Shown: one piece after another, positions 2,664-41,678 of the stretch | How the letters are laid out: each line of letters opens with the position of its first letter | How positions within the stretch are numbered: position 1 is the first letter of the stretch | Virus record (IMG/VR): IMGVR_UViG_3300015195_000006 | Location: 1 to 64,000 of that record | Source: a virus | DNA length: 64,000 nucleotides | Direction: 5' to 3' (one strand) | Translations under genes and position numbers: made by a program | Notes under the pieces: generated by a model | Seen by the model: only the letters and a program-made list of their open reading frames with translations | What the model was told of the DNA's origin: nothing | Database searches by the model: none

Positions 2664-2755
2664 GAATCATCACCTGAATCAACTTGTAGAGCGCGAACAT
2701 CGTCAAACACGCCGCGATGAAAAAGAAGATCCAAATCAGAATCGCCGGCGGTGGA

Positions 2756-12960: not shown

Positions 12961-12986
12961 CGTAGATGCGACAATCCATTTGGCAC

Positions 12987-13202
12987 TTACTTACTTGACA
13001 CATATCTTGAGATTGCGGCAACTGCATTAACCTTGCACTCTGCCGCTTGAAGTATTAATGCGCGGACAGCATTTGCGACCGAAAGATTTATTGGCGGATT
13101 TTCCCATAACTTTGCTATGGATACCGCCTGATTTATGCAAACCCGCGCGCGCTGATTCCAAAAATCATGTTGACCCAATGGAGTCATTTCTGAAATTTCC
13201 AT
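12987..13202 (-). CDS. hypothetical protein (71 aa)
   Basis: Track ORF. Confidence 0.45.
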   Translation of the reverse strand: MEISEMTPLGQHDFWNQRARVCINQAVSIAKLWENPPINLSVANAVRALILQAAECKVNAVAAISRYVSSK

Positions 13203-25823: not shown

Positions 25824-27035
25824 ATGGCAGACGATCAACAAGTAGGCTGGGCTGAAGGCGAAGCGGACCGAGAAGAAGACCAAGAACAAATTGACGCGGC
25901 AATAGCCAAACTTCCAACACCAGTTGTGTCGGTCAACAACCTTCCATCTGGTTCGGTGTTGCCCGCTGTCTTGCCCTATGGTCTCAAATCTCCCTGGACG
26001 CGCACGGTCATTGTGGACGCTGGCGGCAAGGGCGATTTCACTAGTATCGGGTCGGCGTGTGTCTATGTTGCGGCACAAACCCCAACTGCAACTGGACAGT
26101 GGAGAATTAAGGTAAACCCAGGGGTCTACACCGAAGACGCCTTTACGATACCAATATTTACATTGCTTGAAGGGTGTTTTCCCCAGGGAGTCTCTCCAGA
26201 TGGGCTTATTCCGATAGTTAAGATACTCCCCTCTGCTGGTTTTTGGGCTGGGGGAGGTGGATATTTTATCACTATGTCTAACGATTCGGCTCTGTACGGA
26301 GTGTATTGCAAAGCCGCACAGAATGTCACTAAAGACTCCGGAGTTGTCCTATCAGGTAATAACTGTCGGATTGTAGGTTGCTATCTCTACTTTGGTCTTT
26401 TCACTAGCACTGGGGCGTACAATGTATCGGCCGTCAAACACGCAGGGACTTCACTGGCTACTGAAATAATGTTTTCTACCCTGGCTACCTTTGACCCTTC
26501 TGGATTAAATCCAAAGACAAATGCCAGGACAGTATGGGATAGCTCTGGTCACGGAATATCAATGGGGTATTGCCAGATTGTTGCTGCGCTCCATGGTTGC
26601 GGATTTTGGGAAGATGCCGGTAACTCCAATCTCTATTTTGTCAGGATGGGAATCGGTAGCGGCGGCAGTGCCGCATATGATATTTATATCGCGGGTGGAA
26701 CCGTTATAGTCAGCAACACTCCATACCAGACTGCGTTTGGAACTCCAATTCATTTTGACAGATGGTTTCCAACTATTGCCGCAATCCGCCAAGCCCCAAC
26801 CGCTACCGATACGCCCACCATCAGCAAGGGCGCCGTAGCGCAAAGCGCAGACATTCAGCAAGTGCAAGGCAGCGACGCGGCGGTTTTGCACGCCATAGGG
26901 CCTACTGGACAAATTAAGACAAATCAATCGGCGAGCGCTGCTGTTTCGGTCGGAACGTTGGCGAACAAGATGCCGATTTACGACGCGGCGGGGACGCTAC
27001 TTGGATACATTCCGATTTACGCGACCATCACGTGA
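25824..27035 (+). CDS. right-handed beta-helix (pectin-lyase-fold) protein
   Basis: TVIVDAGGKGDFTSIGSA...WRIKVNPGVYTE resembles the pectinesterase/pectate-lyase N-terminal signature. Acidic N-terminus. Confidence 0.5.
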   Translation: MADDQQVGWAEGEADREEDQEQIDAAIAKLPTPVVSVNNLPSGSVLPAVLPYGLKSPWTRTVIVDAGGKGDFTSIGSACVYVAAQTPTATGQWRIKVNPGVYTEDAFTIPIFTLLEGCFPQGVSPDGLIPIVKILPSAGFWAGGGGYFITMSNDSALYGVYCKAAQNVTKDSGVVLSGNNCRIVGCYLYFGLFTSTGAYNVSAVKHAGTSLATEIMFSTLATFDPSGLNPKTNARTVWDSSGHGISMGYCQIVAALHGCGFWEDAGNSNLYFVRMGIGSGGSAAYDIYIAGGTVIVSNTPYQTAFGTPIHFDRWFPTIAAIRQAPTATDTPTISKGAVAQSADIQQVQGSDAAVLHAIGPTGQIKTNQSASAAVSVGTLANKMPIYDAAGTLLGYIPIYATIT

Positions 27036-27706
27036 AGCTCAGCATCGTCTTCGCCACACTCAACCGAATCCAATACTTGCCGCGCTGTCTGGACAGCGTT
27101 TATCGCACAGTCAGCGGGCTCGATTACGAAGTGATCGTTGCCGATGGCGGCTCAACCGATGGCACACTCGGCTATCTCAGAGAAGAGCAAAAGCAAAACG
27201 GATTACGATTGATCGAGCAGGGCAAGCCACTGGGCTGTGTTCGCGCTTTCAACGAGTGCTTCGCTTTAGCGAAAGGCGAATACGTCTTCAACTTCAACGA
27301 CGATGCCGAACTCGTTGGAGATGCCCTTGTAAGCGCGTGCAATATCCTTGACCAACGCAATGACATCGGACAGATTGCCATTCCTTACGCCTTCCCGCAA
27401 TTACCGCCTGAAGTCTCGATGATGAAGATTGGCGGCAGACTTGTCCCATACGCCAACTTCGCTGTAACGACCAAATGCCTTGGGGATAAAGTTGGATGGT
27501 GGGGCGGTCCCGAAATCAATCTCTACCGATACGCTGGCGACAACCAACTCTCGATGAACGTGTGGGCGAGCGGGTGCAAGGTTTTACCGTTACCGGTAAA
27601 AATGGGCTCGATCATCCACTATGCCGCCGAGGACGCGACACGACTAAATTCTCCTGACGACACGACCAAATTCTATTCCTACTGGAAAGACTTCAAATGG
27701 GACTGA
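27032..27706 (+). CDS. family 2 glycosyltransferase
   Basis: LSIVFATLNRIQYLPRCLDSV...YEVIVADGGSTDGT is the GT2 N-terminal signature. Confidence 0.8.
   Translation: MKLSIVFATLNRIQYLPRCLDSVYRTVSGLDYEVIVADGGSTDGTLGYLREEQKQNGLRLIEQGKPLGCVRAFNECFALAKGEYVFNFNDDAELVGDALVSACNILDQRNDIGQIAIPYAFPQLPPEVSMMKIGGRLVPYANFAVTTKCLGDKVGWWGGPEINLYRYAGDNQLSMNVWASGCKVLPLPVKMGSIIHYAAEDATRLNSPDDTTKFYSYWKDFKWD
27584..27599. repeat. copy of 16-bp dyad motif
   Basis: TTACCG TTAC CGGTAA. Encodes LPLPVK in the GT2 gene. Confidence 0.85.
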
Positions 27707-28317
27707 CACCGCAACTCTACGACGAAGGCGAAGAATCCTGGAAACTCAAGGTGCACGTGGGCTGTGGCAACATCTATCTCAATGGCTACTGGAACGTCGA
27801 TCTCGCCGGCTTTCTGGAAAAAGACCAAGGCCCGCATATCAAGCAGATGAACGAAACCTCCGTCGAGGATTACTACGCTCGGCTCAATGGAACGATCTTG
27901 GAACTCCCGCAGCGCCGCGTAACCATCGTAGATGAGTTTATGGACATGACCGACCTTCAGTTCGAGCGCGGCTCAGTTCAAAAGATTGTGGCGATTCAAT
28001 GCTTCGAGCACCTTTCGCCTGTCAAGGCGCTGAATACTCTTGTCAATTGGTGGGGCGTTCTCGCTCAAAATGGCATGGCGATTGTCTCCGTTCCGGATAT
28101 GAGACCAACGATCGCTTGGCTCAGCGATGAATCGGACGTGCGTCAGTTCGCCATCCGACACTTGCTTGGCTCTCAGCGCGACGACCTGAATTGGCATCAA
28201 GCATGGTATACGCCTGAAACACTCACCGAACTGCTGTCGAGTGTTGGATTCCAGGTTGAACCGCTAGAGAATCCACACATCTACCCAGCAATTTGTGTGA
28301 GGTGTCATAAGGTTTGA
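27697..28317 (+). CDS. class I SAM-dependent methyltransferase
   Basis: VHVGCGNIYLNGYWNVDL...IVAIQCFEHL is the Methyltransf_11/23-like pattern. Confidence 0.65.
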   Translation: MGLTPQLYDEGEESWKLKVHVGCGNIYLNGYWNVDLAGFLEKDQGPHIKQMNETSVEDYYARLNGTILELPQRRVTIVDEFMDMTDLQFERGSVQKIVAIQCFEHLSPVKALNTLVNWWGVLAQNGMAIVSVPDMRPTIAWLSDESDVRQFAIRHLLGSQRDDLNWHQAWYTPETLTELLSSVGFQVEPLENPHIYPAICVRCHKV

Positions 28318-28342
28318 CAGAAGAGACGGTACGGCTAATAAT
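28314..28342 (+). promoter_or_regulatory. promoter placed for a leaderless GIY-YIG transcript
   Basis: TTGACA (28314-28319), 17 nt, AATAAT (28337-28342), 6 nt, ATG 28349. No Shine-Dalgarno. Confidence 0.45.
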
Positions 28343-28348
28343 AAGAAC

Positions 28349-29035
28349 ATGGATAAAAACAAACCTGGGATTTACGCGATTCGATGCACCGCCGACGGTA
28401 AGAACTCTACGTACATAGGGCAGGCAGGCAACACAATCAAGGGAAGGTGGGGGAAACACAAAGCCGAGTTGAGAGGCAACCGTCACGGTAACGCGCATCT
28501 ACAAAACGCATGGAACAAATACGGAGAACGCGCCTTTGAATTCATAATACTAGAAAACTCCGAGGTTCGATATTTGACTGAACGAGAACAGTACTGGCTT
28601 GATCGAACCAAAGAAACAACCCCAATCTACAACATCTCACACAAGGTTAGATCGTCGTGCATTGGTACTACCTTTTCAGATGAACACAGACAAAGACTAT
28701 CCAGTAGCTTGATGGGGCATTCTGTTTCTGAGGCAACTCGTCAAGCCGTTTCAAAAAGATGGGAAACACGAGAAAGTGATTCCTGGATAACTCGCTGGCT
28801 AAAGGGTTCTGGGTTTCGCGGAAAGAAATTTACAAAAGAACATTCAGATCAGATTAGTTTAAGTGAGGCACGCCCGTATCCTTCATTTATCAATAAATCC
28901 ACTGACGAGATAATTCCAAGCGGCACTGGACTAAATCGGCTTTGTAAGGCGAGGGGATTGAGTATCTCTAAAATGTCAGAGGTAAAGAACGGAAAGCGTG
29001 CACACCACAAGGGATGGAGATTGTTCGGTGGTTAA
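28349..29035 (+). CDS. GIY-YIG homing endonuclease (copy 1)
   Basis: GIYAIRC...YIGQAGNTIKGRWGKHKAELR...NAWNKYGERAFEFIILE, followed by repeated helical NUMOD-like modules (SDEHRQRLSSSLMG...). Confidence 0.85.
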   Translation: MDKNKPGIYAIRCTADGKNSTYIGQAGNTIKGRWGKHKAELRGNRHGNAHLQNAWNKYGERAFEFIILENSEVRYLTEREQYWLDRTKETTPIYNISHKVRSSCIGTTFSDEHRQRLSSSLMGHSVSEATRQAVSKRWETRESDSWITRWLKGSGFRGKKFTKEHSDQISLSEARPYPSFINKSTDEIIPSGTGLNRLCKARGLSISKMSEVKNGKRAHHKGWRLFGG

Positions 29036-29882
29036 GATTTGCTTTCAAATGGTTGTTTGGCAAAGTGATTATTTCCTTGAGCCGTGCCTGAAAAGCATAT
29101 CTCCTTATGGTCAGATTGTTGTAACAGAGGGTCCGGTATCGTTCTGGACTAAGCGCGGAATGGGAACCTCTACTGACAAGACCAATGGAATTCTACGCAA
29201 GTTAGTTGGCAATAAAAGTGTGATTCATGGGGTTTGGTCTGAGAAAGACGAAATGATGAGAGCGGCAGAGCATTTGATTCCTGCTGATACTGATTTTGTT
29301 TGGATGGTCGATTCGGATGAAATCTATAAGGCAGAGATGGTGGAGAGAGTAATCGCCGCATTGGATACCGGGATGTATGACAGCATCGAATTCACCCCGT
29401 TCAGCTTCTTTGGCGGTTTCTCCAGATATATGACTGGATTCGAGGAGCATCCGCCCTTTGGTTGGCATAGAATCCAAAGATGGTATCCTGGGGCTACCTG
29501 GGAAACACATCGCCCGCCGACTGTGGTCGCACCGGACGGAAAGCCATGGAGAGAGCATCGGCACGTTGGCGCAATCCAATCAGAATCTTTGTTTGGTAGA
29601 TATTTCCATTATTCATACGTCTTCCCGTCCCAAATCAAAGCCAAGACCGAATATTACGCCAACAAGCGAACCATCCCGGACTACTTCAATCAGGTCTATC
29701 GTCCGTGGGTCTTGGGCGAGCGAAAAACGATCGAGGATCAATTCGAGGGCGTTCACGATTGGCTACCGGAAATCCGCGGTGCTTGTCGGACTCGAAAATT
29801 CATCGGCAGCCATCCAGAGGAAATCCAGCGGGTTCTGCCGCAACTCAGAGAACGGTTCGCCAAAGAGATTGCTGAACTATGA
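29028..29882 (+). CDS. putative glycosyltransferase (GT-A-like, DxD motif)
   Basis: FVWMVDSDEIY is a DxD motif within a ~280-aa protein sitting inside the glycan gene cluster. Start at GTG 29028 or ATG 29049. Confidence 0.45.
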   Translation: MVKICFQMVVWQSDYFLEPCLKSISPYGQIVVTEGPVSFWTKRGMGTSTDKTNGILRKLVGNKSVIHGVWSEKDEMMRAAEHLIPADTDFVWMVDSDEIYKAEMVERVIAALDTGMYDSIEFTPFSFFGGFSRYMTGFEEHPPFGWHRIQRWYPGATWETHRPPTVVAPDGKPWREHRHVGAIQSESLFGRYFHYSYVFPSQIKAKTEYYANKRTIPDYFNQVYRPWVLGERKTIEDQFEGVHDWLPEIRGACRTRKFIGSHPEEIQRVLPQLRERFAKEIAEL

Positions 29883-29937
29883 AGACCGCGCTCGTCACAA
29901 TGGCATTCACCAAGGATCGGCAAAAGTGGGCAGAACT

Positions 29938-31959
29938 ATGACCTATCCCGACTATATTGACCGCATAATTTGCGGCAATACGCTCGACTCATTGCGAACG
30001 CTGCCCGATGAATCCGTCCATTGCATCGTCACGAGTCCGCCGTACTGGGGCTTGCGCGATTATGGCACGCCGCCACAAATTTGGCGCAACGGCAAAGAGC
30101 CGTGCGAGAATCACGAGTGGGTTGAACGTGCGGAACGAACCGACGAAACGGGATACCAGCGCAATCGCAAGGGGCTGAATCACGCGGCATTGGCGAGTGA
30201 TGGAAACGAACGCACAGCAGAAGCGCGGGTCAATAACATCGTCAAAAAGTCTGACACCTGTCTCGTCTGCGGATCGTGGCGCGGTCACTTGGGACTGGAG
30301 CCGACGCCAGAACTCTACGTTGAGCATCTAGTTGAGATATTCAGAGAGGCGCGGCGTGTGTTGCGGGATGATGGGACGCTGTGGCTGAACCTGGGAGATA
30401 GTTATTGGGGCGGGAAAGGGCAAAGCGCGCAGGCGTGGTCAACCGAAAACACCGACCGCGATACGCTAGAGAAACCGCAACATCAAATAACTGGCAAAGG
30501 CGAGACGCGCCCGCAAGATGGCAAGCATTCAATCTTGAAACCCAAAGACCTCGTCGGCATCCCTTGGCGCGTGGCGTTCGCATTGCAAGCGGACGGCTGG
30601 TATCTGCGAAGCGACATTATTTGGCACAAGCCGAACCCGATGCCAGAGAGCGTGCGCGATAGACCGACGAAGGCGCACGAATACATTTTCCTGATGAGCA
30701 AGTCGCAGAAGTATTACTACGACTATCAAGCGATTCTCGAACCCGCAAATTACGACGGGCGCAAGAAAACGTTTATGCCTGGATCGCCAAAATATCAGAA
30801 CGGCTTTGCGCCAACAAACGGGTCAGAACAAACACTGCGGGCAAAAGGACATGAACGCTGGTCGAATAAAATCGTGGGACGCACTGAAAAGAAAATGGAA
30901 GGCACGGGTTACGGAGGAGATGGAACTGGGTTGCACGGACATAGCGGTTATTATGACGGCGACGGCAAATTGAGAATGAACGTGGATGCAAACGGCATTC
31001 CCGCGCGCAACAAACGAAGCGTCTGGACGGTCACAACGAAGCCGTTTAGCGGCGCGAAACTGATGGCTGATTATGTTGGCGACGATGGCAAGCCCTACAC
31101 AGCGTCAAAAGATTGTCCTCTGCATGGGCATCTTGCGCGTCCTGAAACGTCTGATACTCTTTCAGGTGGTGAACGACAAGTGGAGAACGAGAGCCGCATT
31201 TCTGACAAGCGTGATGATCGCGGTCAAGAATCTTTTTCCGAATCGAGAGCCAAGACTTTCCATAGCCACGCGGAAGGGTTAGGCGAAAATGCTCTCGCGC
31301 AAATTCCTGAAAGCAGGGGCGACCACAAAACTTCAACTGACCAGAGCGAACATACTTTGCCCGTTCAAAGTCTTTCCCGCACCACGCGCAATTTAGAATC
31401 TCATGGCGATGTGGGCGATAAAAAGGATTCAAGCGACCCAGCACATTCTTTGATTGCCAAGTCCCATAGCAAGCGAAAGAGCAGAACTGACCGCGCTCTC
31501 CTGACATCGCAACGTGATAGCGTTTCCGTACAAACTCTTTTTGGCACACCGAACAACGAATCGTCTGACGTGCGTACTGATTCGGATGTCCGCATTGGCG
31601 AGAGCAATAACGCGGCGGATTACGTTTTAAGTGCGACGGAGCAGAGTCCTTCGGCTGAAATGATTTACCGCACCTTTCACAACGATATTCCATCTGACAC
31701 CTCTACGTCTATTATATGCAAATGCGCGAAAGTGTCAATAGACCATTTCGCCACCTTCCCGCCTGACCTGATTGAGCCATGTATCTTGGCGGGCTGCCCG
31801 AAAGATGGCGTGGTACTTGATCCGTTCTTTGGAAGCGGCACAACGGGCGCGGTAGCGAAGAAACACGGGCGGCATTATCTCGGGCTAGAATTGAAGCCAG
31901 AATATATTGAGATGGCAGAGCGCAGAATCGCAGACGTGCAACCGCAATTGACTTTATGA
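29938..31959 (+). CDS. beta-class N4/N6 DNA methyltransferase carrying a 229-codon in-frame insertion
   Basis: Motif IV IVTSPPYWGLRDYG lies near the N-terminus. RSVWTVTTKPFSGA is separated by 229 codons from HFATFPPDL...VLDPFFGSGTTGAVA (motif I). Start at ATG 29938; the upstream part of the 833-aa track ORF overlaps the preceding gene. Confidence 0.8.
   Translation: MTYPDYIDRIICGNTLDSLRTLPDESVHCIVTSPPYWGLRDYGTPPQIWRNGKEPCENHEWVERAERTDETGYQRNRKGLNHAALASDGNERTAEARVNNIVKKSDTCLVCGSWRGHLGLEPTPELYVEHLVEIFREARRVLRDDGTLWLNLGDSYWGGKGQSAQAWSTENTDRDTLEKPQHQITGKGETRPQDGKHSILKPKDLVGIPWRVAFALQADGWYLRSDIIWHKPNPMPESVRDRPTKAHEYIFLMSKSQKYYYDYQAILEPANYDGRKKTFMPGSPKYQNGFAPTNGSEQTLRAKGHERWSNKIVGRTEKKMEGTGYGGDGTGLHGHSGYYDGDGKLRMNVDANGIPARNKRSVWTVTTKPFSGAKLMADYVGDDGKPYTASKDCPLHGHLARPETSDTLSGGERQVENESRISDKRDDRGQESFSESRAKTFHSHAEGLGENALAQIPESRGDHKTSTDQSEHTLPVQSLSRTTRNLESHGDVGDKKDSSDPAHSLIAKSHSKRKSRTDRALLTSQRDSVSVQTLFGTPNNESSDVRTDSDVRIGESNNAADYVLSATEQSPSAEMIYRTFHNDIPSDTSTSIICKCAKVSIDHFATFPPDLIEPCILAGCPKDGVVLDPFFGSGTTGAVAKKHGRHYLGLELKPEYIEMAERRIADVQPQLTL
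31046..31693 (-). CDS. HNH endonuclease encoded antisense inside the methylase insertion
   Basis: ACQKCGSRSPLVVHHL...NLLTLCRACHRRQH, plus several CxxC zinc-ribbon units. GAGGTG Shine-Dalgarno at 31698-31703. Confidence 0.8.
   Translation of the reverse strand: MEYRCERCGKSFQPKDSAPSHLKRNPPRYCSRQCGHPNQYARQTIRCSVCQKEFVRKRYHVAMSGERGQFCSFACYGTWQSKNVLGRLNPFYRPHRHEILNCAWCGKDFERAKYVRSGQLKFCGRPCFQEFAREHFRLTLPRGYGKSWLSIRKKILDRDHHACQKCGSRSPLVVHHLKEYQTFQDAQDAHAEDNLLTLCRACHRRQHNQPSVSRR
31711..31738 (-). promoter_or_regulatory. sigma70 consensus promoter for the antisense HNH gene
   Basis: Minus strand reads TTGACA (31738-31733), 16 nt, TATAAT (31716-31711). Confidence 0.55.
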
Positions 31960-31975
31960 ATCACCCGCATAGAAT
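31948..31975 (+). promoter_or_regulatory. promoter placed for a leaderless GIY-YIG transcript
   Basis: TTGACT (31948-31953), 16 nt, TAGAAT (31970-31975), 6 nt, ATG 31982. Overlaps the methylase stop codon. Confidence 0.5.
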
Positions 31976-31981
31976 TCGAGT

Positions 31982-32647
31982 ATGCCAAAAAGTAATTTGC
32001 CTGGAATCTATGCGATTGTTAATCTTGCAAACGGGAAGATGACAACCTATGTTGGCTCTACGGGCAACGCAATCGGATTGAGATGGACAGAGCATAGAAC
32101 GAAATTGCGAAGCAATAAGCATTTCAATCGCTATCTTCAAAGCTCTTGGAACAAACACGGCGAAAGCGCGTTTAGATTCGAGGCATTGGAGAACGTGCTT
32201 GAATCGGGTTGGCTGCCAGAGCGAGAACAATTCTGGCTAGATGAGATTAGATCACATAGACCAGTTTACAATACTGGAAAGTGTGCGGCGAATCCGTTAT
32301 TAGATAAACCGATGTCTGATGCCACGAAAAAGAAATTGTCAGAAGCGCGCCTGTCTTTTTCGGATGACGTAAAGAAACGGTTAGCCGCGATGGTTTCAAA
32401 GGTGCATAAGGGCAAGGAAATCTCGAACGCGCAAAGAGAATTTATGCACTTTAGGATGCTAGGAAATAATAATCATCCGCCCGCCAAGCCGTATCCCGCA
32501 TTTGTAAATCAAGTAACGGGTAAAGTCATACCTAGCGGCATGGGTCTTAGAACGATGTGTCGGCAACAGAATCTAAACCAAGCGGCAATGTGGCGCGTGA
32601 TGAAGGGAATCTGCAAACAACACCTTGGGTGGGAGGTTCTAAAGTGA
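31982..32647 (+). CDS. GIY-YIG homing endonuclease (copy 2, paralog of copy 1)
   Basis: GIYAIVNLANGKMTTYVGSTGNAIGLRWTEHRTKLR...SSWNKHGESAFRFEALE. C-terminal PYPAFVNQVTGKVIPSGMGL parallels copy 1. Confidence 0.85.
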   Translation: MPKSNLPGIYAIVNLANGKMTTYVGSTGNAIGLRWTEHRTKLRSNKHFNRYLQSSWNKHGESAFRFEALENVLESGWLPEREQFWLDEIRSHRPVYNTGKCAANPLLDKPMSDATKKKLSEARLSFSDDVKKRLAAMVSKVHKGKEISNAQREFMHFRMLGNNNHPPAKPYPAFVNQVTGKVIPSGMGLRTMCRQQNLNQAAMWRVMKGICKQHLGWEVLK

Positions 32648-33330
32648 AGGACATTGCCCTGGTGACAATGGCTCTGACGCCAGACAGATTGAAAATGGGA
32701 GAGGAGTTGACATTTCCGCGAATGAGAGTCTATGCCAAGAAATACGGCATGGACTTTATCATAATCAAGAAATGTAAACGAAGTCCAACTCTGGGAGACA
32801 TATTTGACTGGGAAAGAGCTGACTGGCTGTATGATCTTTTGTTTCAGTATCGGAGGCTGATCCACATGGACGACGATGTAATCGTCCGCCAAGACGCCGA
32901 AGATATCAGCGACCTTCCTTTCGGCACGTTCTACGGCTTTGACAACGCGCCCTTCAATCCCGCCGAAGTAAGACGGTGCTGGCACCAAGCTCAATCCACC
33001 TGGCACGAATTCCGAGACTTCCCGCCAATGCAACACCTCTACAACAACGGAATGTTCGTCGTGGATTCATCCCTGCAACTTTTATTCGCACCCACTGATG
33101 CTGAACCCTACAACGTCAATTCGGATCAAACGCGCGAGTCTCACTATAAAGGAATGGGAATTCTTAATGCGCGACTCCATGCCTTGGGATATTCGTCTTC
33201 GTATCGCCCTGATTTATTTGGTGTATCTTATCAGCATCCAAAACCGTCCCCAAGTTTCCTGCACGTCCTTTGGCAAGACGGATCGAAGCAAGAAGCAGTA
33301 AAACACTTCATCGAGGAAATGGACAAATGA
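32644..33330 (+). CDS. putative glycosyltransferase (nucleotide-diphospho-sugar transferase fold)
   Basis: IHMDDDVIV is a DxD motif. GTG 32644 is in GTGA overlap with the upstream stop. Confidence 0.5.
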
Positions 33331-34232
33331 AACGGCTACTTCTAACCGGCGGCAACGGCTTCTTGGGAAAACACCTCGCCAAGCGACTCACCGACTACAA
33401 GGTCACCATCCCTGAATACGACCTGAGGAATTGGGAGAACTGCCAGCGCGTCACGCACAATCAGGACATTGTGATCCACCTCGCCGGACGAGTGGGCGGA
33501 ATTGGCTACAATCAAAAGAATCCTGGAACTCTCTTTTACGACAACGCCATTATGGGGATTCAACTGATAGAATCGGCTCGACTCAACGGCGTTTCAAAGT
33601 TTGTCACCGTAGGAACGGTCTGCGCCTATCCCAAACTCACAAACATCCCTTTCAAAGAAACCGACCTTTGGAACGGCTATCCCGAAGAAACCAACGCACC
33701 TTATGGTTTAGCAAAAAAGATGCTTTTGGTCCAAGGGCAAGCCTATCGGCAGCAGTACGGCTTCAACGCCATCTATCTCTTGCCGACCAATCTCTACGGA
33801 CCCGGCGACAACTTTGATCCATCCTCAAGCCACGTCATTCCTGCCATCATCCGCAAGATTCACGAAGCCCAAGTCGCAGGGCGCGACCAAGTTGAAGTGT
33901 GGGGAAGCGGGCTAGCCACGCGTGAATTCCTCTATGTCGAAGATGCCGCCGAAGGAATCTTGCTTGCCGCGGAAAACTACAACGAACCCAAACCGGTCAA
34001 CCTCGGCGGCTATAGTTTCATCTCGATCTCCGGACTTACAACGCTGATTGCAAAACTGATGCATTTCAACGGCGAAATCGTTTGGGATAAATCCCAACCC
34101 AACGGGCAACCGATGCGCACTCTAGATAAAACCAAAGCACTTGAATTTGGATTCAGAGCCAAAACCGAACTCAGCCAAGGACTTCAGGCAACGATCGAAT
34201 GGTATCATGCTCAACTTCTGCACCCTCTTTGA
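33327..34232 (+). CDS. fcl: GDP-L-fucose synthase (GDP-4-keto-6-deoxymannose epimerase/reductase)
   Basis: [13 protein letters not shown] Rossmann motif; [16 protein letters not shown]; catalytic YGLAKK; [22 protein letters not shown]; [16 protein letters not shown]. This is the characteristic Fcl/WcaG pattern. Confidence 0.85.
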
Positions 34233-35016
34233 TAAGGCGTACACGCCCAAGGGAATGGCTTTGCTGGCATCCATCAAACGCTGGATGCCGGATGCCAAGT
34301 GCTATGTGCTCTACCTTGGATCTGAATCGCCGCAGTTCGAGGAAGTGACCTTCCTACGAGATGTCATTACCGATGAACTCATTGAAGCCTCGGAAAACCG
34401 ATCCTACAAAGAATTCGTCTGGACACTCAGCGCTTGGTGGGTCTGGTATCTCTTGAAAACCCTAGACTCTGTCATTTACGTAGACGCCGACATGTTCTTT
34501 TTCAACCCGCTCGAACTACCTAAAACCGACATCGCCATCTGTCCGCATCGCTGGACTCCTCGGCACAAAGATAATTTGGTTGCCAATGGAATCTACAACG
34601 TTGGACTCATATCATTTCGCAATACACGAGCAAGCAAACGCTGTGCCAAGGATTGGAAAGACCAATGCCTTGAGTGGTGCTACGAAAAGCATGATGGTGA
34701 ACGATTCGGCGATCAGGGCTATCTCGATAACTGGGTCGAAACCTATGGGGCGTTTGTCATCAATCACTTGGGAATCGATCTCGCGCCCTGGAATCAGGAG
34801 CAATACCGCTACTGTCTGGAGAACGGACATTTATTCATTGACGATGGAAAGAACTGCGATCCGCTGGTGCTCTATCACTTTTCCGAGTTTGGCACTCTCC
34901 GACACGGCAAGCCCGTTTGGACCAACTACAAACTACACCCGATGGTCGCCAGTTACATCTACCCGACCTATCAAGCCGAGGTTGCAAAGTGGACGTTTGG
35001 CTCAAGCCTGAAGTAG
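34207..35016 (+). CDS. putative glycosyltransferase (GT8-like, DxD)
   Basis: [13 protein letters not shown] is a DxD motif. Start at ATG 34207 or 34255. Confidence 0.5.
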
Positions 35017-35579
35017 CCGAGGCACAAAGGCAACTCGTGCTCACCGAACTAAAGAATCCCAGCAAGACCCCAGCGCTCTCCTACTTTCTGCGAGTAATGG
35101 AGTCTTTGCCGAAAAAGGGCGGCACGTTTCTCGACGTGGGTTGCGGATGCGGTCACTACGGTTATCTCATCGATTTAAACTTCCCCCAATGGGACTACAT
35201 CGGCACCGACTATTCACCGGCTATGATCGAACGCGCCAAAAACATTGTGCCTCTGGAAACCTTTCGGGTCTGCGAATTCCTCGACAACAAATTCGAGCAG
35301 TATGACGCGGTGCTCATATCCCAAGTGATGGAACAAGCGCCCGACCCTTGGGACTGGCTCGATTATGCCGTTCAAAGAACACGCGGCTATTTGATCCTGC
35401 ACCGCCTCCGCCTCATCAAAGGATATTCTCGGCGGATCTCCGAACCCACTTATCTAGGACTTCCTTGCAAAAATTACGAGTGGAATTACAAACAGATGCT
35501 CAGACACCTCAGCCCGGACGCACTGGTGCTTCCGTGGCTCGATCAAAGACAATACACCATCGTACTGCCGCCAGTATGA
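34989..35579 (+). CDS. class I SAM-dependent methyltransferase
   Basis: GGTFLDVGCGCGHYG is SAM motif I. Start is uncertain (GTG 34989). Confidence 0.65.
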   Translation: MDVWLKPEVAEAQRQLVLTELKNPSKTPALSYFLRVMESLPKKGGTFLDVGCGCGHYGYLIDLNFPQWDYIGTDYSPAMIERAKNIVPLETFRVCEFLDNKFEQYDAVLISQVMEQAPDPWDWLDYAVQRTRGYLILHRLRLIKGYSRRISEPTYLGLPCKNYEWNYKQMLRHLSPDALVLPWLDQRQYTIVLPPV

Positions 35580-35626
35580 AAACTTGACCCACCCAGAAGC
35601 AGAAGCAGAAAAAGGAGCATACGGAA

Positions 35627-35884
35627 ATGTTGACACTTCGACACGTCGAAAAGAATGGGTACGAAAGCGTTCAGCAAGTGGCATCGGTATCACTCGAAAT
35701 GCCCGCTGAACACAATGAATATCACCCAACGCTAAATCGCCACAACGAAAACGGGCAAGTACTCGACGGTGGCTATGGCGATGGCAAGGTCTATGTAATG
35801 AACGAAAACGGCAAAACGGTTGCAGTCTACGATTTGGATGAATTGCAACTAGCCGCGAAAATCTCGAAAGAGAAGAAAAAGTAA
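35627..35884 (+). CDS. small conserved protein (85 aa), paralog of 50732..50953
   Basis: MLTLRHVEKNGYE...KVYVMNENGKTVAVYDL compared with VLTVRWLNNTGEF...DLFVMNEAGKTVADYHL. Confidence 0.55.
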   Translation: MLTLRHVEKNGYESVQQVASVSLEMPAEHNEYHPTLNRHNENGQVLDGGYGDGKVYVMNENGKTVAVYDLDELQLAAKISKEKKK

Positions 35885-35906
35885 TTGACCCTGGGTGGGT
35901 CAAGCC

Positions 35907-36656
35907 ATGAAAGTTCATCCACTCGACATCTCTTATCTCACGGAGCAGTTAGAACGCAAACAGCCCTTCTCGCTTGTGCGCTATGGCGACGGAGAGTTTT
36001 ACTCCATCCTCGGCGCATCAGGCGCAAACTGCGACGGCGCTGAATACAATCTGCCAAAACTCCGTGAATCGCTAGCACATACTCTCACCGAACCGAGAGA
36101 CTATCTCTACTGCATTGGTCCCAAAGTGATGAACCGCAAAAACGGCATCACGGAAAAGTCTGTCGAATGGATTGAGCAGAACGCACCTTCAATTCGCTGG
36201 CACACCTCCGAAACCATCCTTGAGGCATCGCTTGCTGGCAACCTAAAACCACTCACTCAGGCACTTGGAAAGGTGATGATCGTCGGACCGGTACATCTTC
36301 GTGGTCTTCCCATTCCTTTCAAAACTTTCGTCCAAGTCCCAACCATCAACGCATGGCTTCATTACGATATGATTCTCTACCTCATTCGCAGAGAACTCTA
36401 TCAAGTGGACACCATTCTTTTCTCGGCAGGGTTTGTGAGCAAGTGTGCGATATGGTCTCTCTTTCCGTCCGTAGGAGAAACCCACAATCTAATTGACATC
36501 GGGAGTTCCTTCGACAGTGCGGTGGGGGTTGACTCAAGGTCTTATTCTAGAAAACTAACACTGGAACAAAAGATTAGGCTTTCTGTTTTGAATTTCGGTA
36601 TCTCCGAAGAAACGGCACGCCAGTTATTGACAAGTGATAAGTCTGTATTAAAATAG
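35907..36656 (+). CDS. putative GT-D type glycosyltransferase (DUF1792-like)
   Basis: FSLVRYGDGEFYSILG matches the RxGDGE N-terminal motif of DUF1792/GT-D proteins. Confidence 0.5.
   Translation: MKVHPLDISYLTEQLERKQPFSLVRYGDGEFYSILGASGANCDGAEYNLPKLRESLAHTLTEPRDYLYCIGPKVMNRKNGITEKSVEWIEQNAPSIRWHTSETILEASLAGNLKPLTQALGKVMIVGPVHLRGLPIPFKTFVQVPTINAWLHYDMILYLIRRELYQVDTILFSAGFVSKCAIWSLFPSVGETHNLIDIGSSFDSAVGVDSRSYSRKLTLEQKIRLSVLNFGISEETARQLLTSDKSVLK
36627..36654 (+). promoter_or_regulatory. promoter placed for a leaderless GIY-YIG transcript
   Basis: TTGACA (36627-36632), 16 nt, TAAAAT (36649-36654), 6 nt, ATG 36661. Confidence 0.5.
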
Positions 36657-36660
36657 GATC

Positions 36661-37371
36661 ATGGGAAAATTCTACGTCTATGCACTCTCTTATCCTGACG
36701 GTACTGTTTTCTACGTTGGCAAGGGAAGCGATAAAACGCAGCGTCTTCGCAAACATGAGTTCAATGCAAGGCGTGGGCACAAATGTCATAGATGTAGTGT
36801 GATAAGGAAAATCTGGAGAGAGGGCGGGGCAGTTGGCTTTGAAAAGATATTTCAAACTGACAATGAAGATGTGGCTCTTTCAGAAGAAGTCCGCTTAATT
36901 GCTCACTATAGGTCTATTGGAGTTTGTCTAACAAACGAGACAAACGGTGGCGATGGCAAGTCCGGCTATATTGCATCGGCGGCAACCCGGTTAAAGCATA
37001 GATTGGCAATGCTAGGAAATAAGCATTCCCTTGGAAAACTTCTTTCCGAGGAACACAAAGCCGCCATTTCTGCTGCGTTACGCGACAAACCGAAGTCAGA
37101 AGAAGCTCGCAAAAGAATGAGCGACGCACAAAAGGGGAATAAGCACTGCCTCGGTCGGAAATGGACTCCTGAATTTCACGCAAAGTTTATTGCAAAAAGG
37201 AAGAATCATCCCGTGTCTAATAGCACTCGTGCCAAAATAAGTGCATCTCTAGCGGGTCATATCCCTTGGAATAAGGGATTAAAAACAGGGAAAGGTCTTA
37301 AACAGTCACCCGAAACAATCAAGAAAAGAACTGAAACCAGAAGGAAGAATCACCCAAACTGGTTCGATTAG
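36661..37371 (+). CDS. GIY-YIG homing endonuclease (copy 3) with NUMOD3-like repeats
   Basis: FYVYALSYPDGTVFYVGKGS...RLRKHEF, followed by repeated units of the xxHxxKISxxLxG type (EEHKAAISAAL, ARKRMSDAQKG, TRAKISASLAG). Confidence 0.8.
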   Translation: MGKFYVYALSYPDGTVFYVGKGSDKTQRLRKHEFNARRGHKCHRCSVIRKIWREGGAVGFEKIFQTDNEDVALSEEVRLIAHYRSIGVCLTNETNGGDGKSGYIASAATRLKHRLAMLGNKHSLGKLLSEEHKAAISAALRDKPKSEEARKRMSDAQKGNKHCLGRKWTPEFHAKFIAKRKNHPVSNSTRAKISASLAGHIPWNKGLKTGKGLKQSPETIKKRTETRRKNHPNWFD

Positions 37372-37637: not shown

Positions 37638-37707
37638 TGGCAGTCGAGTAACCCGAAATAGGCAGTCCTCACGGAACGCCACTTTAATCGTAGCCGCCGC
37701 GCAAGCG

Positions 37708-37741
37708 AGCGCCACGAATGAAGTGGCGTTCTTTTTATTTT
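37708..37741 (+). terminator. intrinsic terminator
   Basis: AGCGCCAC-gaatgaa-GTGGCGTT followed by CTTTTTATTTT. The same 3' arm can also pair perfectly (11 bp) with GAACGCCACTT at 37674-37684. Confidence 0.6.
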
Positions 37742-37796: not shown

Positions 37797-40700
37797 ATGG
37801 ATTCCTGTGTCAAGCAAGTAATGGCGCAAGGGAAGGACAAATCATCAGCGATCGCGATCTGCATGTCATCTATCGTCAAGCGCGACGGTCTCCCGCGTTA
37901 CATGGCATACATTGACAATGACTTTCCGAAGATCGCCTACAACGTCATTGACACGATCACCGGCGAGAAGCAATTCTTTACGTATGGCGTGGGGCATAAA
38001 CGATTCCAAACCCAGGAAGCCGCACAACACGCGGCAGACCAATTGAATGCTAAAGAGGCAAAGATAACCCAACGCGCCGATAGCGGCTTCTTCGTCGGGC
38101 TAAAAGTCCCATCGAATATTGCTCAAGATTACGAACTCGATGGAAACTCCGCAACCTGTCCTTATCAGCAAGAGGGCAGAAACGCCAACCCACAGGGATA
38201 CGAAGATTGGTGGGATGGATTCCTAGCCGCCAAGCATCACGCGGAGTGGCCCAATGTCGCAGGCGCGCAAGACCCATATCGCGAGACACGCCAAACCAAC
38301 TTCACTCGCATTCTCTTTCTGGTCAATCTCGAAAACGATGCCAACGACGACCCTGCTCTTATCGAGGAAGCTCGATCCGTCAAGACAATCCTTGAGACTC
38401 GCTTACCGACTGAACTTGTTTTCATCCGGACACCGCAAGATATCGAAGTCGCTTTAGCCAAGTTCGATCCAAGCGACACGTTCATTTACAACTGGGCTGA
38501 AAATCTACCGGGCTGGATTGAAGGCGGCGAAACCGCCACCTCGATTGTCGATGATGATTGGGCACACAGCGCCAGTGCCGCCGGGGTTCAGCGGCTCATC
38601 TTTGACCGAGCGCAGACCTACTTATTTTTACAGGAATGGGGTATTCCCATTCCCAAATTCTTGCTCATCTATGGGCTTGCGGACATTGGACAATGGGAAG
38701 ATTATCCCGCCTTTTTAGGACCGAACAACGTCCATGGCTCAGAATCTTTAGCCCTCGTCAATGATACCGAGGAAGCGCAGAAGCACATTGAGACACTGCA
38801 AACGAAACACCAACCGCCCTGGCTCTTTCGAGAGTATATTGGCGGAGAGCGACCTGCCCGTGAATTCTCGGTTGCCCTTCTCAGTGATGGAACGACGACA
38901 ACGGTTCTCCCGGTTGCTGAAACGAATTTTGAGGTCCTGCCGCACGATTACAAAACGGAACAGGATAAAGGCGTGGCAGGTCCGAGCGTTCAAGAACTCA
39001 ATACCTGTCCGGCGGTCTTAGACCCAGCCCTACAAGAGAAACTCACCGAGTGGTCACGCGAGATATTCCACAATGTGGGAATCAAGATTTATGGACGAGT
39101 GGACTGGCGACTTTACGAAGATGAATCAGACCCGATCTGCATCGACATCAATCCGGAACCGGAAACCTGTCACGACTCGCTCATGGAACAAATCGGACTT
39201 GCCGCGGGAATGTCGTTCGACCAACTCATTTTGAAGATTCTCGACAATGGAATTGCCTACGAAAAACGGCTTGAAGCCAGCGAGGAAAATATGCCACAAA
39301 GAGCGCAGATAATTGATGTCCGAGCGAAACCGCGTCAGATGAATCCACGTCCAATGAAACTCGTCGCGGCAAAGCAACGCGCTCTCTCCACCGGCGATGT
39401 ATTCCGCGCAAGTGGCTCAGCCGGGGGCGTGACTCTCGGAAAAGAGTATGCAATTATCTTTGTTGCTTCCAATATGGTAACCGTCCAACCAACGAGCGGA
39501 GGCGGCGGAACGATTGACTTGAGCGATTCAGAGTTTCAACAAGTGACGGGCGAAACGATAGCGAGAGCCAGTGAATACACCGTCAAGAAACAACCCGGCG
39601 GCAAATTTGTTGTGGTAGACAGCGCGGGCAAAGTTCACGGAGAGACATTTGACGACGAACTCACCGCGAAGAATAGTGCGGCATATCTAAACACCGCATT
39701 AGCAATGGGGCAAGAGATTCATCCAGGTCAGCGCGCCACTCTTCCCGTCAACAGTAAAAACCCCATCGCGCAACTCTTCAACTCCATCAAGCGAGCGTTT
39801 GAGCCCTACATCAAAGAGCAAGCCACCAACGGCGTGCCTGATTACGTCCCCACTGAATCAAAGGCAACGTGGATCCAAACCTACAACGATGCGATTGCCA
39901 AGTCTCGTACCCACGATGAGGCAGCGATGCTGGCAGATAAAGCCGCAGGGATTCAACGCGCAATGACCGCTCAGCGTCTTGTCTCTCAAATCCTCCAACG
40001 ATTCGATGAGATGAAGCGCGGTTACACCACAACTGGCACTTCTATTTTCTTCGACGACGGTAGCGAATATTCTGCCGCAGTCGAGAAACTTCAGGGACAA
40101 TTTTTATCGAACGACGCCAGCGTTCTCCAGATAAAATTCAAAGATGCGGAACAAATGCAGACCGCTATTGCTAGTCTCAGCGGTCAGCGCGACTCCGACA
40201 TCAAAGCGCCGATGAAGAACGGCGAGACCCTGCCGCAGATGCGCGCTCTCGACCCGCTTGACATCTACTTCGACAAAGGGCGCATGTTCGTCCTCGCTAC
40301 TGGCGACGGAAGGCTCTATCGCTTTGCGGTGAACGTCAAAAATGGAAACGTCAGTCTGTCAGAACGGACAGAGATTACCGAAGAACGCGCTACCCAATCC
40401 TTTCAAATCATCCGCGAGAACGGCAAAGTCCGTTGGCTTGCTATCGCTGCCTCAAGCGTCCTCAACCGTTCGGGCGAGATTGACTCCACGAAACTCTTTG
40501 ACTCATTTGTGGACTTTATCGATCGGTCCGGGATTTATCCCGTCCTCGACTTCTTCCACACCCGCGATGAAGTGAGACTCGGACAATCCGATTTCGTCGC
40601 TCGGGACGGCAATCTCTACATCTCGGCGGGCACGTTTGACGACACCGAGATCGCAAGAGCCGCGATTGAAACGCTCGAAAAGACACCCGACGACTGGGGC

Positions 40701-41678
40701 TTGTCCATCTCCTATCTAAAAACCCAGGAACCCGTGATGACACGGGTTGCTGATGGAATTGATATTCCCGTTTACACCGAAGGAATCAACGATTTTATCT
40801 CAGTCTTGCCAAAGACGCGCGCTTGCAATCTGTTCACCGTCATTGGCACACAAGGAGTTGAACGTATGAAGAAGGAAGTTTTCGACGCTTTGGTGTCATT
40901 GGTCGGACCTGAACGCGCCAAGACATTCTCAGCAAACGTCGACCAAACCAACCGCGTGATTGACGAGCAACGTCTTATCACACGCGCCGCGAAAGTCATT
41001 CGCCAGGGTGCGGCGTACGAGGAAGGCAAAGCGGCGGCGGTCGCTGATCCAAACTCGACCAATCCCTACCCCGCCGGTTCACCGGAAAACGCTGAATGGC
41101 AGAAGGGCTTCGATGAAGCGGCAAAGGGTGCTTCTGCACCCGCGGCGGATGCGCCTCCCGCTACTCAGCAACAGGCAGCGCCATCGCCCGATCCAACTCA
41201 AATGCAACCAGACTTGGGAGCCACCGGTACAGGTGCGGCTCAATTCTGTCCCCAGTGCGGACAACCCGTTCCGCCTGAAGCTACAGTTTGTCCCAACTGC
41301 GGCTATGACCTCACGCAACCGCAAGAGGTGCAAGTGGATCCGGCGTTGCAAGACCAAATCGTCGAACAGGCAGCTAGTCTCGCCGTTCGGCAGATTGGCA
41401 AACCGATCGCTGACCTTGCGAAAAGCGTGGAAGATCTGACCAAACTCGTCGCAGAATCCGTCAAGACACGGGCAACAGATGACGAGCGAATCAAGGCGCT
41501 TGAGAAAGATGAAGTAATCAAGCGACAAGAGTGGTCGGCTGACCTCCCAAAAGGGAAGCGTCCGCAAATCATCGTGCGCCCGCGAGCGGTTGAACGTGAA
41601 GCCGCGCCTCTCACGCCCGATGAGATTGCCAAAGCAACGATCGCGAAACTCAGCAATCAAACGAAACTGAATCCATAA
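37797..41678 (+). CDS. 1293-aa head polyprotein: ATP-grasp (D-Ala-D-Ala-ligase-like) domain, HK97-type prohead protease domain, zinc ribbon and scaffold-like coiled coil
   Basis: ATP-grasp, about nt 38300-39260: FREYIGGERPAREFSVALL and GRVDWRLYEDESDPICIDINPEPE...GMSFDQLILKIL. Protease, about nt 40400-40900: DFFHTRDEVRLGQSDFVARDGNLYISG..DDWGLSISYL. CPQCG...CPNCG at about 41245-41310. Helical C-terminus directly precedes the capsid gene. Confidence 0.75.
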   Translation: MDSCVKQVMAQGKDKSSAIAICMSSIVKRDGLPRYMAYIDNDFPKIAYNVIDTITGEKQFFTYGVGHKRFQTQEAAQHAADQLNAKEAKITQRADSGFFVGLKVPSNIAQDYELDGNSATCPYQQEGRNANPQGYEDWWDGFLAAKHHAEWPNVAGAQDPYRETRQTNFTRILFLVNLENDANDDPALIEEARSVKTILETRLPTELVFIRTPQDIEVALAKFDPSDTFIYNWAENLPGWIEGGETATSIVDDDWAHSASAAGVQRLIFDRAQTYLFLQEWGIPIPKFLLIYGLADIGQWEDYPAFLGPNNVHGSESLALVNDTEEAQKHIETLQTKHQPPWLFREYIGGERPAREFSVALLSDGTTTTVLPVAETNFEVLPHDYKTEQDKGVAGPSVQELNTCPAVLDPALQEKLTEWSREIFHNVGIKIYGRVDWRLYEDESDPICIDINPEPETCHDSLMEQIGLAAGMSFDQLILKILDNGIAYEKRLEASEENMPQRAQIIDVRAKPRQMNPRPMKLVAAKQRALSTGDVFRASGSAGGVTLGKEYAIIFVASNMVTVQPTSGGGGTIDLSDSEFQQVTGETIARASEYTVKKQPGGKFVVVDSAGKVHGETFDDELTAKNSAAYLNTALAMGQEIHPGQRATLPVNSKNPIAQLFNSIKRAFEPYIKEQATNGVPDYVPTESKATWIQTYNDAIAKSRTHDEAAMLADKAAGIQRAMTAQRLVSQILQRFDEMKRGYTTTGTSIFFDDGSEYSAAVEKLQGQFLSNDASVLQIKFKDAEQMQTAIASLSGQRDSDIKAPMKNGETLPQMRALDPLDIYFDKGRMFVLATGDGRLYRFAVNVKNGNVSLSERTEITEERATQSFQIIRENGKVRWLAIAASSVLNRSGEIDSTKLFDSFVDFIDRSGIYPVLDFFHTRDEVRLGQSDFVARDGNLYISAGTFDDTEIARAAIETLEKTPDDWGLSISYLKTQEPVMTRVADGIDIPVYTEGINDFISVLPKTRACNLFTVIGTQGVERMKKEVFDALVSLVGPERAKTFSANVDQTNRVIDEQRLITRAAKVIRQGAAYEEGKAAAVADPNSTNPYPAGSPENAEWQKGFDEAAKGASAPAADAPPATQQQAAPSPDPTQMQPDLGATGTGAAQFCPQCGQPVPPEATVCPNCGYDLTQPQEVQVDPALQDQIVEQAASLAVRQIGKPIADLAKSVEDLTKLVAESVKTRATDDERIKALEKDEVIKRQEWSADLPKGKRPQIIVRPRAVEREAAPLTPDEIAKATIAKLSNQTKLNP
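39742..39757. repeat. copy of 16-bp dyad motif
   Basis: TTCCCG TCAA CAGTAA. Encodes LPVNSK in the polyprotein. Confidence 0.85.

Follow-up and report, generated by a model that had tools for sequence, protein, structure and literature searches.

Why does a tailed phage carry a set of glycan-biosynthesis genes among the genes that build its head, and on what would their products act? The question is raised by a stretch of 64,000 nucleotides (positions 1 to 64,000 of IMG/VR virus record IMGVR_UViG_3300015195_000006; hereafter the window), which spans nearly all of a 64.5-kb metagenomic contig from an uncultured tailed phage and holds, at 25824–36656, an island rich in glycosyltransferase (GT) and methyltransferase genes. 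A preliminary description of this DNA had placed a glycan pathway in the head module and suggested that it may decorate virion proteins. The location is borne out and is strengthened by synteny at 26 of 27 related loci and by the variable cassettes found there, while virion glycosylation itself is inferred. In our best reading, to which we attach an even chance, virion proteins are glycosylated in the cytoplasm by the phage's own enzymes. This reading builds on the observed gene identities, on how the capsid protein folds, on a gene order and a variability that extend across the family, and on the finding of neither membrane segments nor lipid-carrier machinery. To our knowledge, only a few mycobacteriophages have been shown to glycosylate their virions with enzymes of their own, and Freeman et al. 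reportedly saw, in 2023, little sign of such modification in the wider phage population.

The evidence centers on an enzyme encoded beyond the capsid gene, a family-conserved two-domain glycosyltransferase of family GT2 (hereafter the core GT2). We gathered 27 non-redundant related loci through an alignment-based scan, after exact and close-relative look-ups had given none, and mapped the window proteins onto them. At 26 of these loci (including L035, which is truncated), a core GT2 homolog with 31–76% identity follows the capsid gene and precedes the next conserved head gene. At least 780 homologs of this enzyme were found. Their layout (alignment A2) comprises two GT-A domains, an invariant MGCCG linker, a beta-rich domain of about 65 amino acids (aa), and a basic C-terminal tail. 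The second GT-A domain carries an invariant D295-D296 within DADD, and the first has NQD where DxD is expected. The beta-rich domain, which lies within the last 139 aa (45554–45970), was modeled by AlphaFold2 (AF2) with a predicted local distance difference test (pLDDT) score of about 96, and a fold search with it returned nothing below E 0.01 in PDB or BFVD; the model thus points to a novel domain. By our reading of alignment A2, about 31 of 37 homologs end in a K/R-rich, helix-hairpin-helix (PF14520) or HeH/SAP-like tail, and these tails are interchangeable among relatives. In one sub-clade the post-capsid enzyme has the second GT2 domain only, and there a homolog of the 224-aa GT2 of the island lies just after the portal-like gene. 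The exception is L028, in which only the C-terminal domain of the core GT2 is left, as two stand-alone open reading frames (ORFs), and the catalytic GT domains are gone. The preliminary description had put a two-domain GT2 right after the capsid gene; the two domains are confirmed by two PF00535 stretches, but in the window a minus-strand HNH endonuclease gene sits between the two genes.

The capsid gene named in that description is likewise supported, here by structure. Among the PDB entries retrieved with Foldseek for the AF2 model of its product, the 50 best matches were capsid proteins of phages or gene transfer agents, encapsulins, and other capsid-assembly entries (best E 1e-8), indicating an HK97 fold. 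More than 600 homologs were found at E ≤0.001, all of them uncultured and none informatively named. The C-terminal tail of the protein is of particular interest. Its Ser, Phe and Pro columns are invariant or nearly so in the family alignment (A1), it is retained at almost all loci and is degenerate in L028, and its motif is unique to the capsid protein within the window. Conserved, modeled as disordered and rich in Ser and Thr, this tail is a plausible candidate for a glycan acceptor, and the candidate acceptor peptide for the core GT2 would be ISPDPTSSFFPETSFRGTICPPELG. At L028 the capsid gene also matches in two pieces about 240 nt apart (2054–3553), for which an intron, an insertion or a frameshift is possible.

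Thirteen plus-strand ORFs occupy the island, and eight of them are glycan-related. Gene identities were assigned with Pfam (at its gathering scores), PHROGs, NCBIfam and PDB. Four calls of the preliminary description are well supported, namely the 224-aa GT2, the GDP-L-fucose synthase, the 196-aa S-adenosylmethionine (SAM) methyltransferase and the DUF1792-type GT-D enzyme. The last of these is weak as a single sequence (16.7 bits in Pfam vs a cutoff of 27), and it is a profile of 63 of its 997 homologs that bears the call out, matching PDB 4phr/4pfx (GalT1) at 9e-9 and 5v4a (DUF1792) at 5e-8; PF22882 is matched by 29 of the 63 and PF08759 by 24. The three GT-A-like transferases and the other SAM methyltransferase, also named earlier, proved borderline, each falling just under its Pfam gathering score, and only three of the six transferases counted earlier pass curated thresholds, alone or as a profile. 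Single-sequence PDB searches with the GT8-like, Nucleotid_trans-like and GT-D-like proteins gave no meaningful match. Most of these genes recur in relatives. The 277-aa GT2-like protein is conserved in L001 and L041, and in the latter its homolog adjoins a 40%-identical homolog of the 206-aa methyltransferase-like protein. L001 carries orthologs of the GT8-like protein (77% identical), of the DAD-motif transferase (80% identical) and of the 196-aa methyltransferase, and GT-D homologs occur in L001, L017 (two copies) and L027. Homologs of the 224-aa GT2 directly follow the portal-like gene in seven relatives, and the only one scanned with Pfam, in L007, is fused to a GT-B-like domain. We also considered the 224-aa GT2 as a paralog of one domain of the core GT2 and rejected this, the similarity being family-level only (E 0.003).

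The GDP-L-fucose synthase deserves closer attention. All of its top PDB matches are GDP-L-fucose synthases (3.6e-57), and the NCBIfam model Fcl (NF047922) is its best family by far (254 bits, 2.1e-75), with the equivalog cutoff of 500 missed. Aligned to the Escherichia coli GMER structure 1bws, it keeps the equivalents of C109, Y136, K140 and H179, and S107 is replaced by Thr. The protein is an extended short-chain dehydrogenase/reductase (SDR) with the N-terminal motif GGNGFLG, and the GMER/Fcl signature (GxxGxxG, Tyr/Lys, Cys/His) is present. Judged from its sequence, its product may instead be a related GDP-6-deoxyhexose. As the preliminary description had noted, GDP-mannose dehydratase (GMD) is missing: no second extended SDR was found in the window by tblastn with two SDR queries, and none occurs among the scanned window ORFs. 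Because no GMD is encoded, the synthase would rely on host-made GDP-4-keto-6-deoxymannose. The closest relative, L001, lacks the synthase altogether. Fucosylation, which the preliminary description held possible, is an optional trait in the lineage.

None of the island enzymes has a transmembrane (TM)-like segment, nor does the core GT2, and no Pfam family of flippases, polymerases, initiating phosphoglycosyl transferases or GT-C enzymes was found among the head-module ORFs. Because all of these are missing, the chemistry is probably cytoplasmic and nucleotide sugars are probably used directly. The genomic setting is that of virion assembly. From about 21.2 to 54 kb the plus strand forms a single long run of same-strand genes, opened upstream of the island by TerS (phrog_51, 2.9e-26) and TerL (phrog_2, 6.4e-33). 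The GT genes lie between the TerL and portal-like genes and the capsid gene, and again after the capsid gene, on the same strand and with small or overlapping gaps.

The comparison across the lineage revealed how variable the accessory genes are around the fixed enzyme. The closest relative, L001, shares 86% capsid identity with the window. Within the part of the island that its contig spans, there is no DNA methyltransferase, no second or third GIY-YIG gene, no HNH gene, no 85-aa ORF and no fucose synthase; the remaining island enzymes are retained in the same order at 62–80% identity. At L041 no homolog of the first GIY-YIG gene lies between the homologs of the methyltransferase-like and GT2-like genes, which sit close together. 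From these two comparisons the island appears as a conserved string of enzymes peppered with mobile cassettes, in which fucose synthesis is optional. An accessory census covered 112 plus-strand ORFs. The stretch taken began at most 7 kb upstream of the capsid gene, and no earlier than the portal-like gene if one had been found, and it ended at the next conserved head gene. Pfam assigned nine of them to GT2, nine to sulfotransferases, seven to GT-B-like enzymes, seven to methyltransferases and two to GT1/4, with one DegT aminotransferase, one epimerase and one UDP-glucose dehydrogenase. Accessory glycan genes often sit between the capsid gene and the core GT2, as do a methyltransferase–sulfotransferase fusion in L014 (11329–12834), a GT4-like enzyme and a sulfotransferase (12292–13059) in L026, a methyltransferase, an aminotransferase and an acetyltransferase in L003, and a sulfotransferase in L033 (9241–9996). 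Sulfated phage-made glycans would be unusual. Given this 27-locus comparison, the island of the window can be seen as one local version of a lineage-wide, fast-changing cassette around a fixed, capsid-linked core.

The closest parallels come from mycobacteriophages. Phages such as Che8, Corndog and Myrna also carry soluble GTs and methyltransferase-like genes inside the structural operon, and their glycans, according to what Freeman et al. are said to have found in 2023, sit on the C-termini of capsid and tail-tube subunits; such a C-terminal acceptor parallels the conserved capsid tail proposed here. In Corndog these genes, gp38 among them, stand between gene 34, in the portal region, and the genes for the capsid maturation protease and the capsid, a slot that corresponds to that of the island in the window. 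That gp38 is essential for capsid glycosylation is reported in PMC12363180. Homology with Corndog was nevertheless rejected, as no similarity to gp35-38, gp41 or gp49 was detectable: tblastn of all window proteins against 14–44 kb of Corndog gave nothing below E 0.02, and the GT8-like protein aligned to gp36 in BLASTP with E 0.21. The systems differ in other respects as well. The lineage and probably the host are different, and the window has no relatives among GenBank phages. The core enzyme here has two GT2 domains and a novel C-terminal module, is tied in position to the capsid gene and mostly precedes DUF1360. Relatives of the window, in addition, carry sulfotransferases and aminotransferases.

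Other known systems share single features with the island. Structurally solved GT-D enzymes act on a serine-rich-repeat glycoprotein, and the profile of the phage GT-D protein matches those of Streptococcus parasanguinis (dGT1/GalT1; 4phr, 5v4a), with which it has an N-terminal R-x-G-D-G-E motif in common. The identity is low, however, and the streptococcal enzyme belongs to an accessory Sec locus rather than a phage head module. The chlorovirus PBCV-1 and the phage each encode part of the GDP-fucose pathway: PBCV-1 has GMD as well as GMER, the phage the second enzyme only. In chloroviruses the capsid protein is glycosylated in the cytoplasm by virus-encoded multidomain transferases, yielding fucose-containing, methylated glycans (PMC7826918). 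The autonomous, organelle-independent capsid glycosylation of PBCV-1 (A064R, A111/114R; PMC7826918) resembles what we propose here. PBCV-1 differs in being a giant virus of eukaryotes, in having a capsid of the double-jelly-roll type and in carrying N-linked glycans, and its enzymes are not orthologous to those of the phage.

From these observations we infer the acceptor, the order of the steps and the sugars. The core GT2 would start or extend a glycan on a virion protein, and the best candidate acceptor would be the Ser/Thr-rich C-terminal tail of the capsid protein. We propose this pair because the tail is conserved and predicted to be disordered, because mycobacteriophage glycans are C-terminal, and because Corndog gp38 has a corresponding position. 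The fucose synthase would finish the host-made GDP-4-keto-6-deoxymannose, and the island enzymes would elongate the glycan and cap it with a 6-deoxyhexose and O-methyl groups; in relatives, sulfate, amino or acetyl groups would take their place. The outcome would be a strain-variable glycan coat on the particle. In this system 44231–45973 would be the fixed core and the 25.8–36.7 kb island the variable accessory part.

The same repertoire invites another explanation, which we consider unlikely: that the enzymes remodel a host envelope glycopolymer (wall teichoic acid, S-layer glycan or exopolysaccharide) during infection or lysogeny. Like the TarP or Gtr systems of prophages, they would thereby change receptors or keep out superinfecting phages. 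Loci for envelope polysaccharides typically contain GT2, GT8-like and methyltransferase genes, and the closest named NCBIfam and PHROG matches are exopolysaccharide, teichuronic-acid and GtrB-like enzymes. Phage-encoded GT2 enzymes are a feature shared with GtrABC and TarP, and the PDB matches of the core GT2 include the prophage wall teichoic acid transferase TarP (6h1j). In addition, a DUF1360 membrane protein follows the core GT2 in most relatives, and L033 (GCA_048499255.1, contig JASOAE010000004.1, 112.9–134.7 kb) sits in the middle of a 213-kb contig of a metagenome-assembled genome (MAG) and may be a prophage. However, no GtrA or GtrC was found here, DUF1360 is not GtrA-like, and the GT2 enzymes lack TM helices, as do all the others; the missing flippase, polymerase, initiating phosphoglycosyl transferase and GT-C enzyme also argue against a role at the envelope. 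Moreover, conversion genes usually lie near the attachment site, whereas these genes belong to the late head module beside the capsid gene, to which they are locked across the lineage. The system is lineage-universal rather than an accessory moron, and no integrase was found among window ORFs of at least 150 aa.

Two further accounts involve the phage particle or DNA. The glycan may be carried by the virion on an acceptor other than the capsid tail, either a head fiber or decoration protein (the 403-aa orphan at the start of the island, or beta-helix, lectin-like or collagen-like proteins) or the C-terminal module of the core GT2 itself, anchored to the particle; we regard this as rather doubtful. 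Beta-helix, Laminin_G_3 and collagen-repeat proteins recur in the cassettes of relatives, the 403-aa protein opens the island and has a fiber-type C-terminal module, and the stand-alone C-terminal domains of L028 suggest an independent, possibly structural role. Such candidates, however, vary between genomes, in contrast to the universal core enzyme and capsid tail, and the 403-aa protein has no homolog at any related locus. It seems very improbable, in turn, that the core GT2 acts on or with DNA, whether by glycosylating modified bases or as a DNA-tethered, packaged and injected effector that glycosylates host targets. The tails of its homologs and the presence of a DNA methyltransferase in the island would fit such a role. 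Yet that methyltransferase belongs to a mobile cassette absent from L001, and, unlike in T4-type DNA glucosylation, no gene for base pre-modification is present: no base hydroxymethylase, thymidylate-synthase-like, DNA-kinase or other hypermodification family was found among the scanned window ORFs of at least 150 aa. The methyl-, sulfo- and aminotransferases, the GT-D enzyme and the fucose synthase point instead to a complex glycan, not to a one-sugar modification of a base or of the toxin type.

Cytoplasmic glycosylation of virion proteins must itself be weighed against several observations. The claim is purely genomic, and our searches against Corndog found no sequence similarity to the mycobacteriophage glycosylation proteins. 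Four island enzyme calls lie below curated thresholds, and the co-variation of GT-domain loss with a degenerate capsid tail rests on the single locus L028. A terminator-like hairpin, the strongest of the plus strand, parts the island from the scaffold-like and capsid genes, which makes their co-transcription, as claimed in the preliminary description, uncertain. In addition, the sequences of the core GT2 tails suggest nucleic-acid binding, and a membrane protein is encoded after the enzyme; modification of a capsid has no obvious need of either.

Table. Features of the island and of the neighboring head genes, with their coordinates in the window and the evidence for each
Feature	Position	Strand	Evidence
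403-aa orphan protein	25824..27035	+	No Pfam, PHROG, NCBIfam or PDB match
GT2-family glycosyltransferase, 224 aa, soluble	27032..27706	+	PF00535 2.7e-20, 73 bits vs cutoff 23.3; no TM segment
Class I SAM-methyltransferase-like protein, 206 aa, weakly supported	27697..28317	+	PF13489 (Methyltransf_23) E 0.0044, 17.2 vs 27; phrog_6636 methyltransferase 2.6e-4
GIY-YIG homing endonuclease	28349..29035	+	PF01541 7e-10, phrog_314 5.7e-23; promoter-like TTGACA-17-AATAAT at 28314-28342
GT-A/GT2-like protein, 277 aa, borderline	29049..29882	+	PF00535 22.9 bits vs 23.3; phrog_13126 beta-1,4-glycosyltransferase 3.7e-5
N4/N6 DNA methyltransferase with 229-codon in-frame insertion (31057-31743)	29938..31959	+	PF01555 7.9e-49, phrog_67 1.2e-69
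HNH endonuclease, antisense within the methyltransferase insertion	31046..31693	-	phrog_1271 4.6e-34; perfect sigma70-like TTGACA-16-TATAAT at 31738-31711
Second GIY-YIG homing endonuclease	31982..32647	+	phrog_314 1.7e-16; promoter-like site 31948-31975
GT8-like GT-A protein, DDD motif, 228 aa, borderline	32644..33330	+	PF01501 23.4 bits vs 24.3
GDP-L-fucose synthase (GDP-4-keto-6-deoxymannose 3,5-epimerase/4-reductase)	33327..34232	+	PF01370 4.9e-54
Nucleotide-diphospho-sugar transferase-like protein, DAD motif, 269 aa, borderline	34207..35016	+	PF03407 (Nucleotid_trans) 21.5 bits vs 22
Class I SAM methyltransferase, 196 aa, GTG start	34989..35579	+	PF08242 4.8e-13, 50 bits; four more methyltransferase families above cutoff
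GT-D (DUF1792-type) glycosyltransferase	35907..36656	+	Profile of 63 homologs
Third GIY-YIG/NUMOD3 homing endonuclease, abutting the island	36661..37371	+	PF07460 8.4e-12, PF01541 8.5e-7; promoter-like site 36627-36654
Strongest terminator-like hairpin of the plus strand	37707..37731	+	9-bp stem, 6 GC pairs, then TTTTTATTTT
1293-aa protein	37797..41678	+	PF07478 (ATP-grasp) 6.6e-12 at aa 296-482; zinc ribbon at about aa 1150
Major capsid protein, HK97 fold, 478 aa	41687..43123	+	AF2 pLDDT 74.5; about 10 invariant Cys
Capsid C-terminal tail, aa 445-478	43019..43120	+	pLDDT <50; consensus SPDPxETSFFPETSF..CP
HNH endonuclease cassette between capsid gene and two-domain GT2	43186..43854	-	phrog_374 2.1e-27; flanking hairpins
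Two-domain GT2, family-conserved core enzyme, soluble	44231..45973	+	PF00535 8.3e-37, 127 bits, two stretches
DUF1360 small membrane protein, CxxC motif	45963..46274	+	PF07098 7.4e-12; TM-like segment

The glycan island proposed earlier thus holds its glycan genes, but it is not a clean glycan operon. Two GIY-YIG genes, the DNA methyltransferase with its antisense HNH gene, and the 85-aa ORF, all overlooked in the preliminary description, interrupt it and make up about 34% of its 10.8 kb; the third GIY-YIG gene and the HNH gene after the capsid gene, both just outside the island, had been overlooked too. The homing-endonuclease genes and the DNA methyltransferase gene of the island are insertions, selfish or unrelated; the first GIY-YIG gene is a mobile insertion outside the glycan pathway. 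We rejected the idea that the DNA methyltransferase belongs to the pathway, since L001, the closest relative, lacks the entire gene and endonuclease cassettes lie on either side of it. Compared with the enzyme of Burkholderia phage KL4, the methyltransferase carries an exact insertion of 229 codons (687 nt) inside the conserved motif GAHFATFP, between GA and HFATFP. The methyltransferase frame is open through the insert; when the HNH codons were resampled synonymously 5000 times, it stayed open in just 3 cases. Both strands therefore seem to be kept open, or under selection. A near-consensus sigma70-type promoter-like site lies directly upstream of each of the three GIY-YIG genes and of the nested HNH gene. 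The HNH gene after the capsid gene, which is absent from L001, has such a site only about 350 nt upstream. Two further HNH genes lie on the minus strand of the left arm (4244–4732 and 5824–6402). With at least seven homing-endonuclease genes in the window, the island is a dense example of homing-endonuclease traffic.

Not every gene of the head module could be assigned. The 403-aa protein that opens the island had been described as a beta-helix protein of the pathway, but it is an orphan without a library match. No full-length homolog was found among 5.8 billion proteins, and only two partial ones. Over its last 78 residues it shares 58% identity with the C-termini of two otherwise unrelated proteins with QTANLQEWQD..G repeats (including L038:397-2091), and this stretch looks like an exchangeable fiber-tip module; by this resemblance the protein is probably a fiber-like structural protein rather than a glycan enzyme. 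The portal and protease identities of the preliminary description found no library or PDB support. A conserved 530-aa protein follows TerL in the portal position, with no library or single-sequence PDB match to a portal, and no protease domain was detected in the 1293-aa protein by Pfam, PHROGs or a PDB search of its scaffold-like C-terminal part. As these searches gave no meaningful match, both names stay positional guesses. Only residues of about 815–1293 of the 1293-aa protein form the family-conserved, scaffold-like part; its N-terminal 800 aa or so, including the ATP-grasp domain of the D-Ala-D-Ala-ligase type, are peculiar to this window. Within a head-assembly protein, such a ligase domain is puzzling. 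The head module encodes a single membrane protein, DUF1360, whose CxxC, at the start of the second TM helix, is kept in all 24 aligned sequences. Together with about 10 Cys of the capsid protein and the GCCG of the core GT2, this motif belongs to a set of invariant cysteines, and a thiol/disulfide step in head assembly may be phage-encoded.

Downstream of the capsid region lie a tape-measure-like protein, a 1363-aa protein of the tail region with a GH25 muramidase domain at its end (54716–58807), and a 1046-aa protein with F5/8 type C (discoidin) and DUF7402 domains (58804–61944); the latter two are probably the tail lysin and the receptor-binding apparatus. No tRNA was found in the tRNA search. 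Megablast of 21–46 kb against INPHARED revealed no relatives, its sole match being a 167-bp methyltransferase stretch, and tblastn of the capsid protein against the same database found none among GenBank phages. The capsid protein gave no match in an exact look-up, nor did IMG/VR yield any in a close-relative scan. A GTDB scan yielded no more than three MAG contigs, all of them short (Ardenticatenia, Chloroflexota and a Methanomassiliicoccales bin). Short MAG contigs carrying the capsid gene (L035, L037) are labeled Ardenticatenia and Chloroflexota, and the Chloroflexota MAGs are a weak hint of the host.

The findings point to a large environmental lineage whose capsid gene is matched, both in conservation and in constancy of position, by a glycosyltransferase gene with hypervariable tailoring cassettes around it. 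Their main interest is that the trait appears to be lineage-defining and that relatives add sulfotransferases to it. If the particle is the acceptor, phage surfaces could carry strain-specific glycans, among them methylated, fucosylated and possibly sulfated ones, with a bearing on phage engineering, on adsorption to matrices and mucus, and on how phages evade binding proteins. With its single core enzyme, its single candidate acceptor peptide and accessory cassettes that form a natural panel, the system lends itself to direct tests. We tentatively extend the proposal to the whole of this widespread uncultured lineage, which comprises at least 600 capsid-protein clusters at 90% identity: its members may build a genome-encoded capsid "glycocalyx", in which the core GT2 would recognize the tail and fast-swapping cassettes would diversify the glycan with fucose, O-methyl groups, sulfate and amino sugars. 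If this is true, virion glycosylation would be a lineage-defining trait outside the actinobacteriophages, with the first sulfated glycans of any phage among its products.

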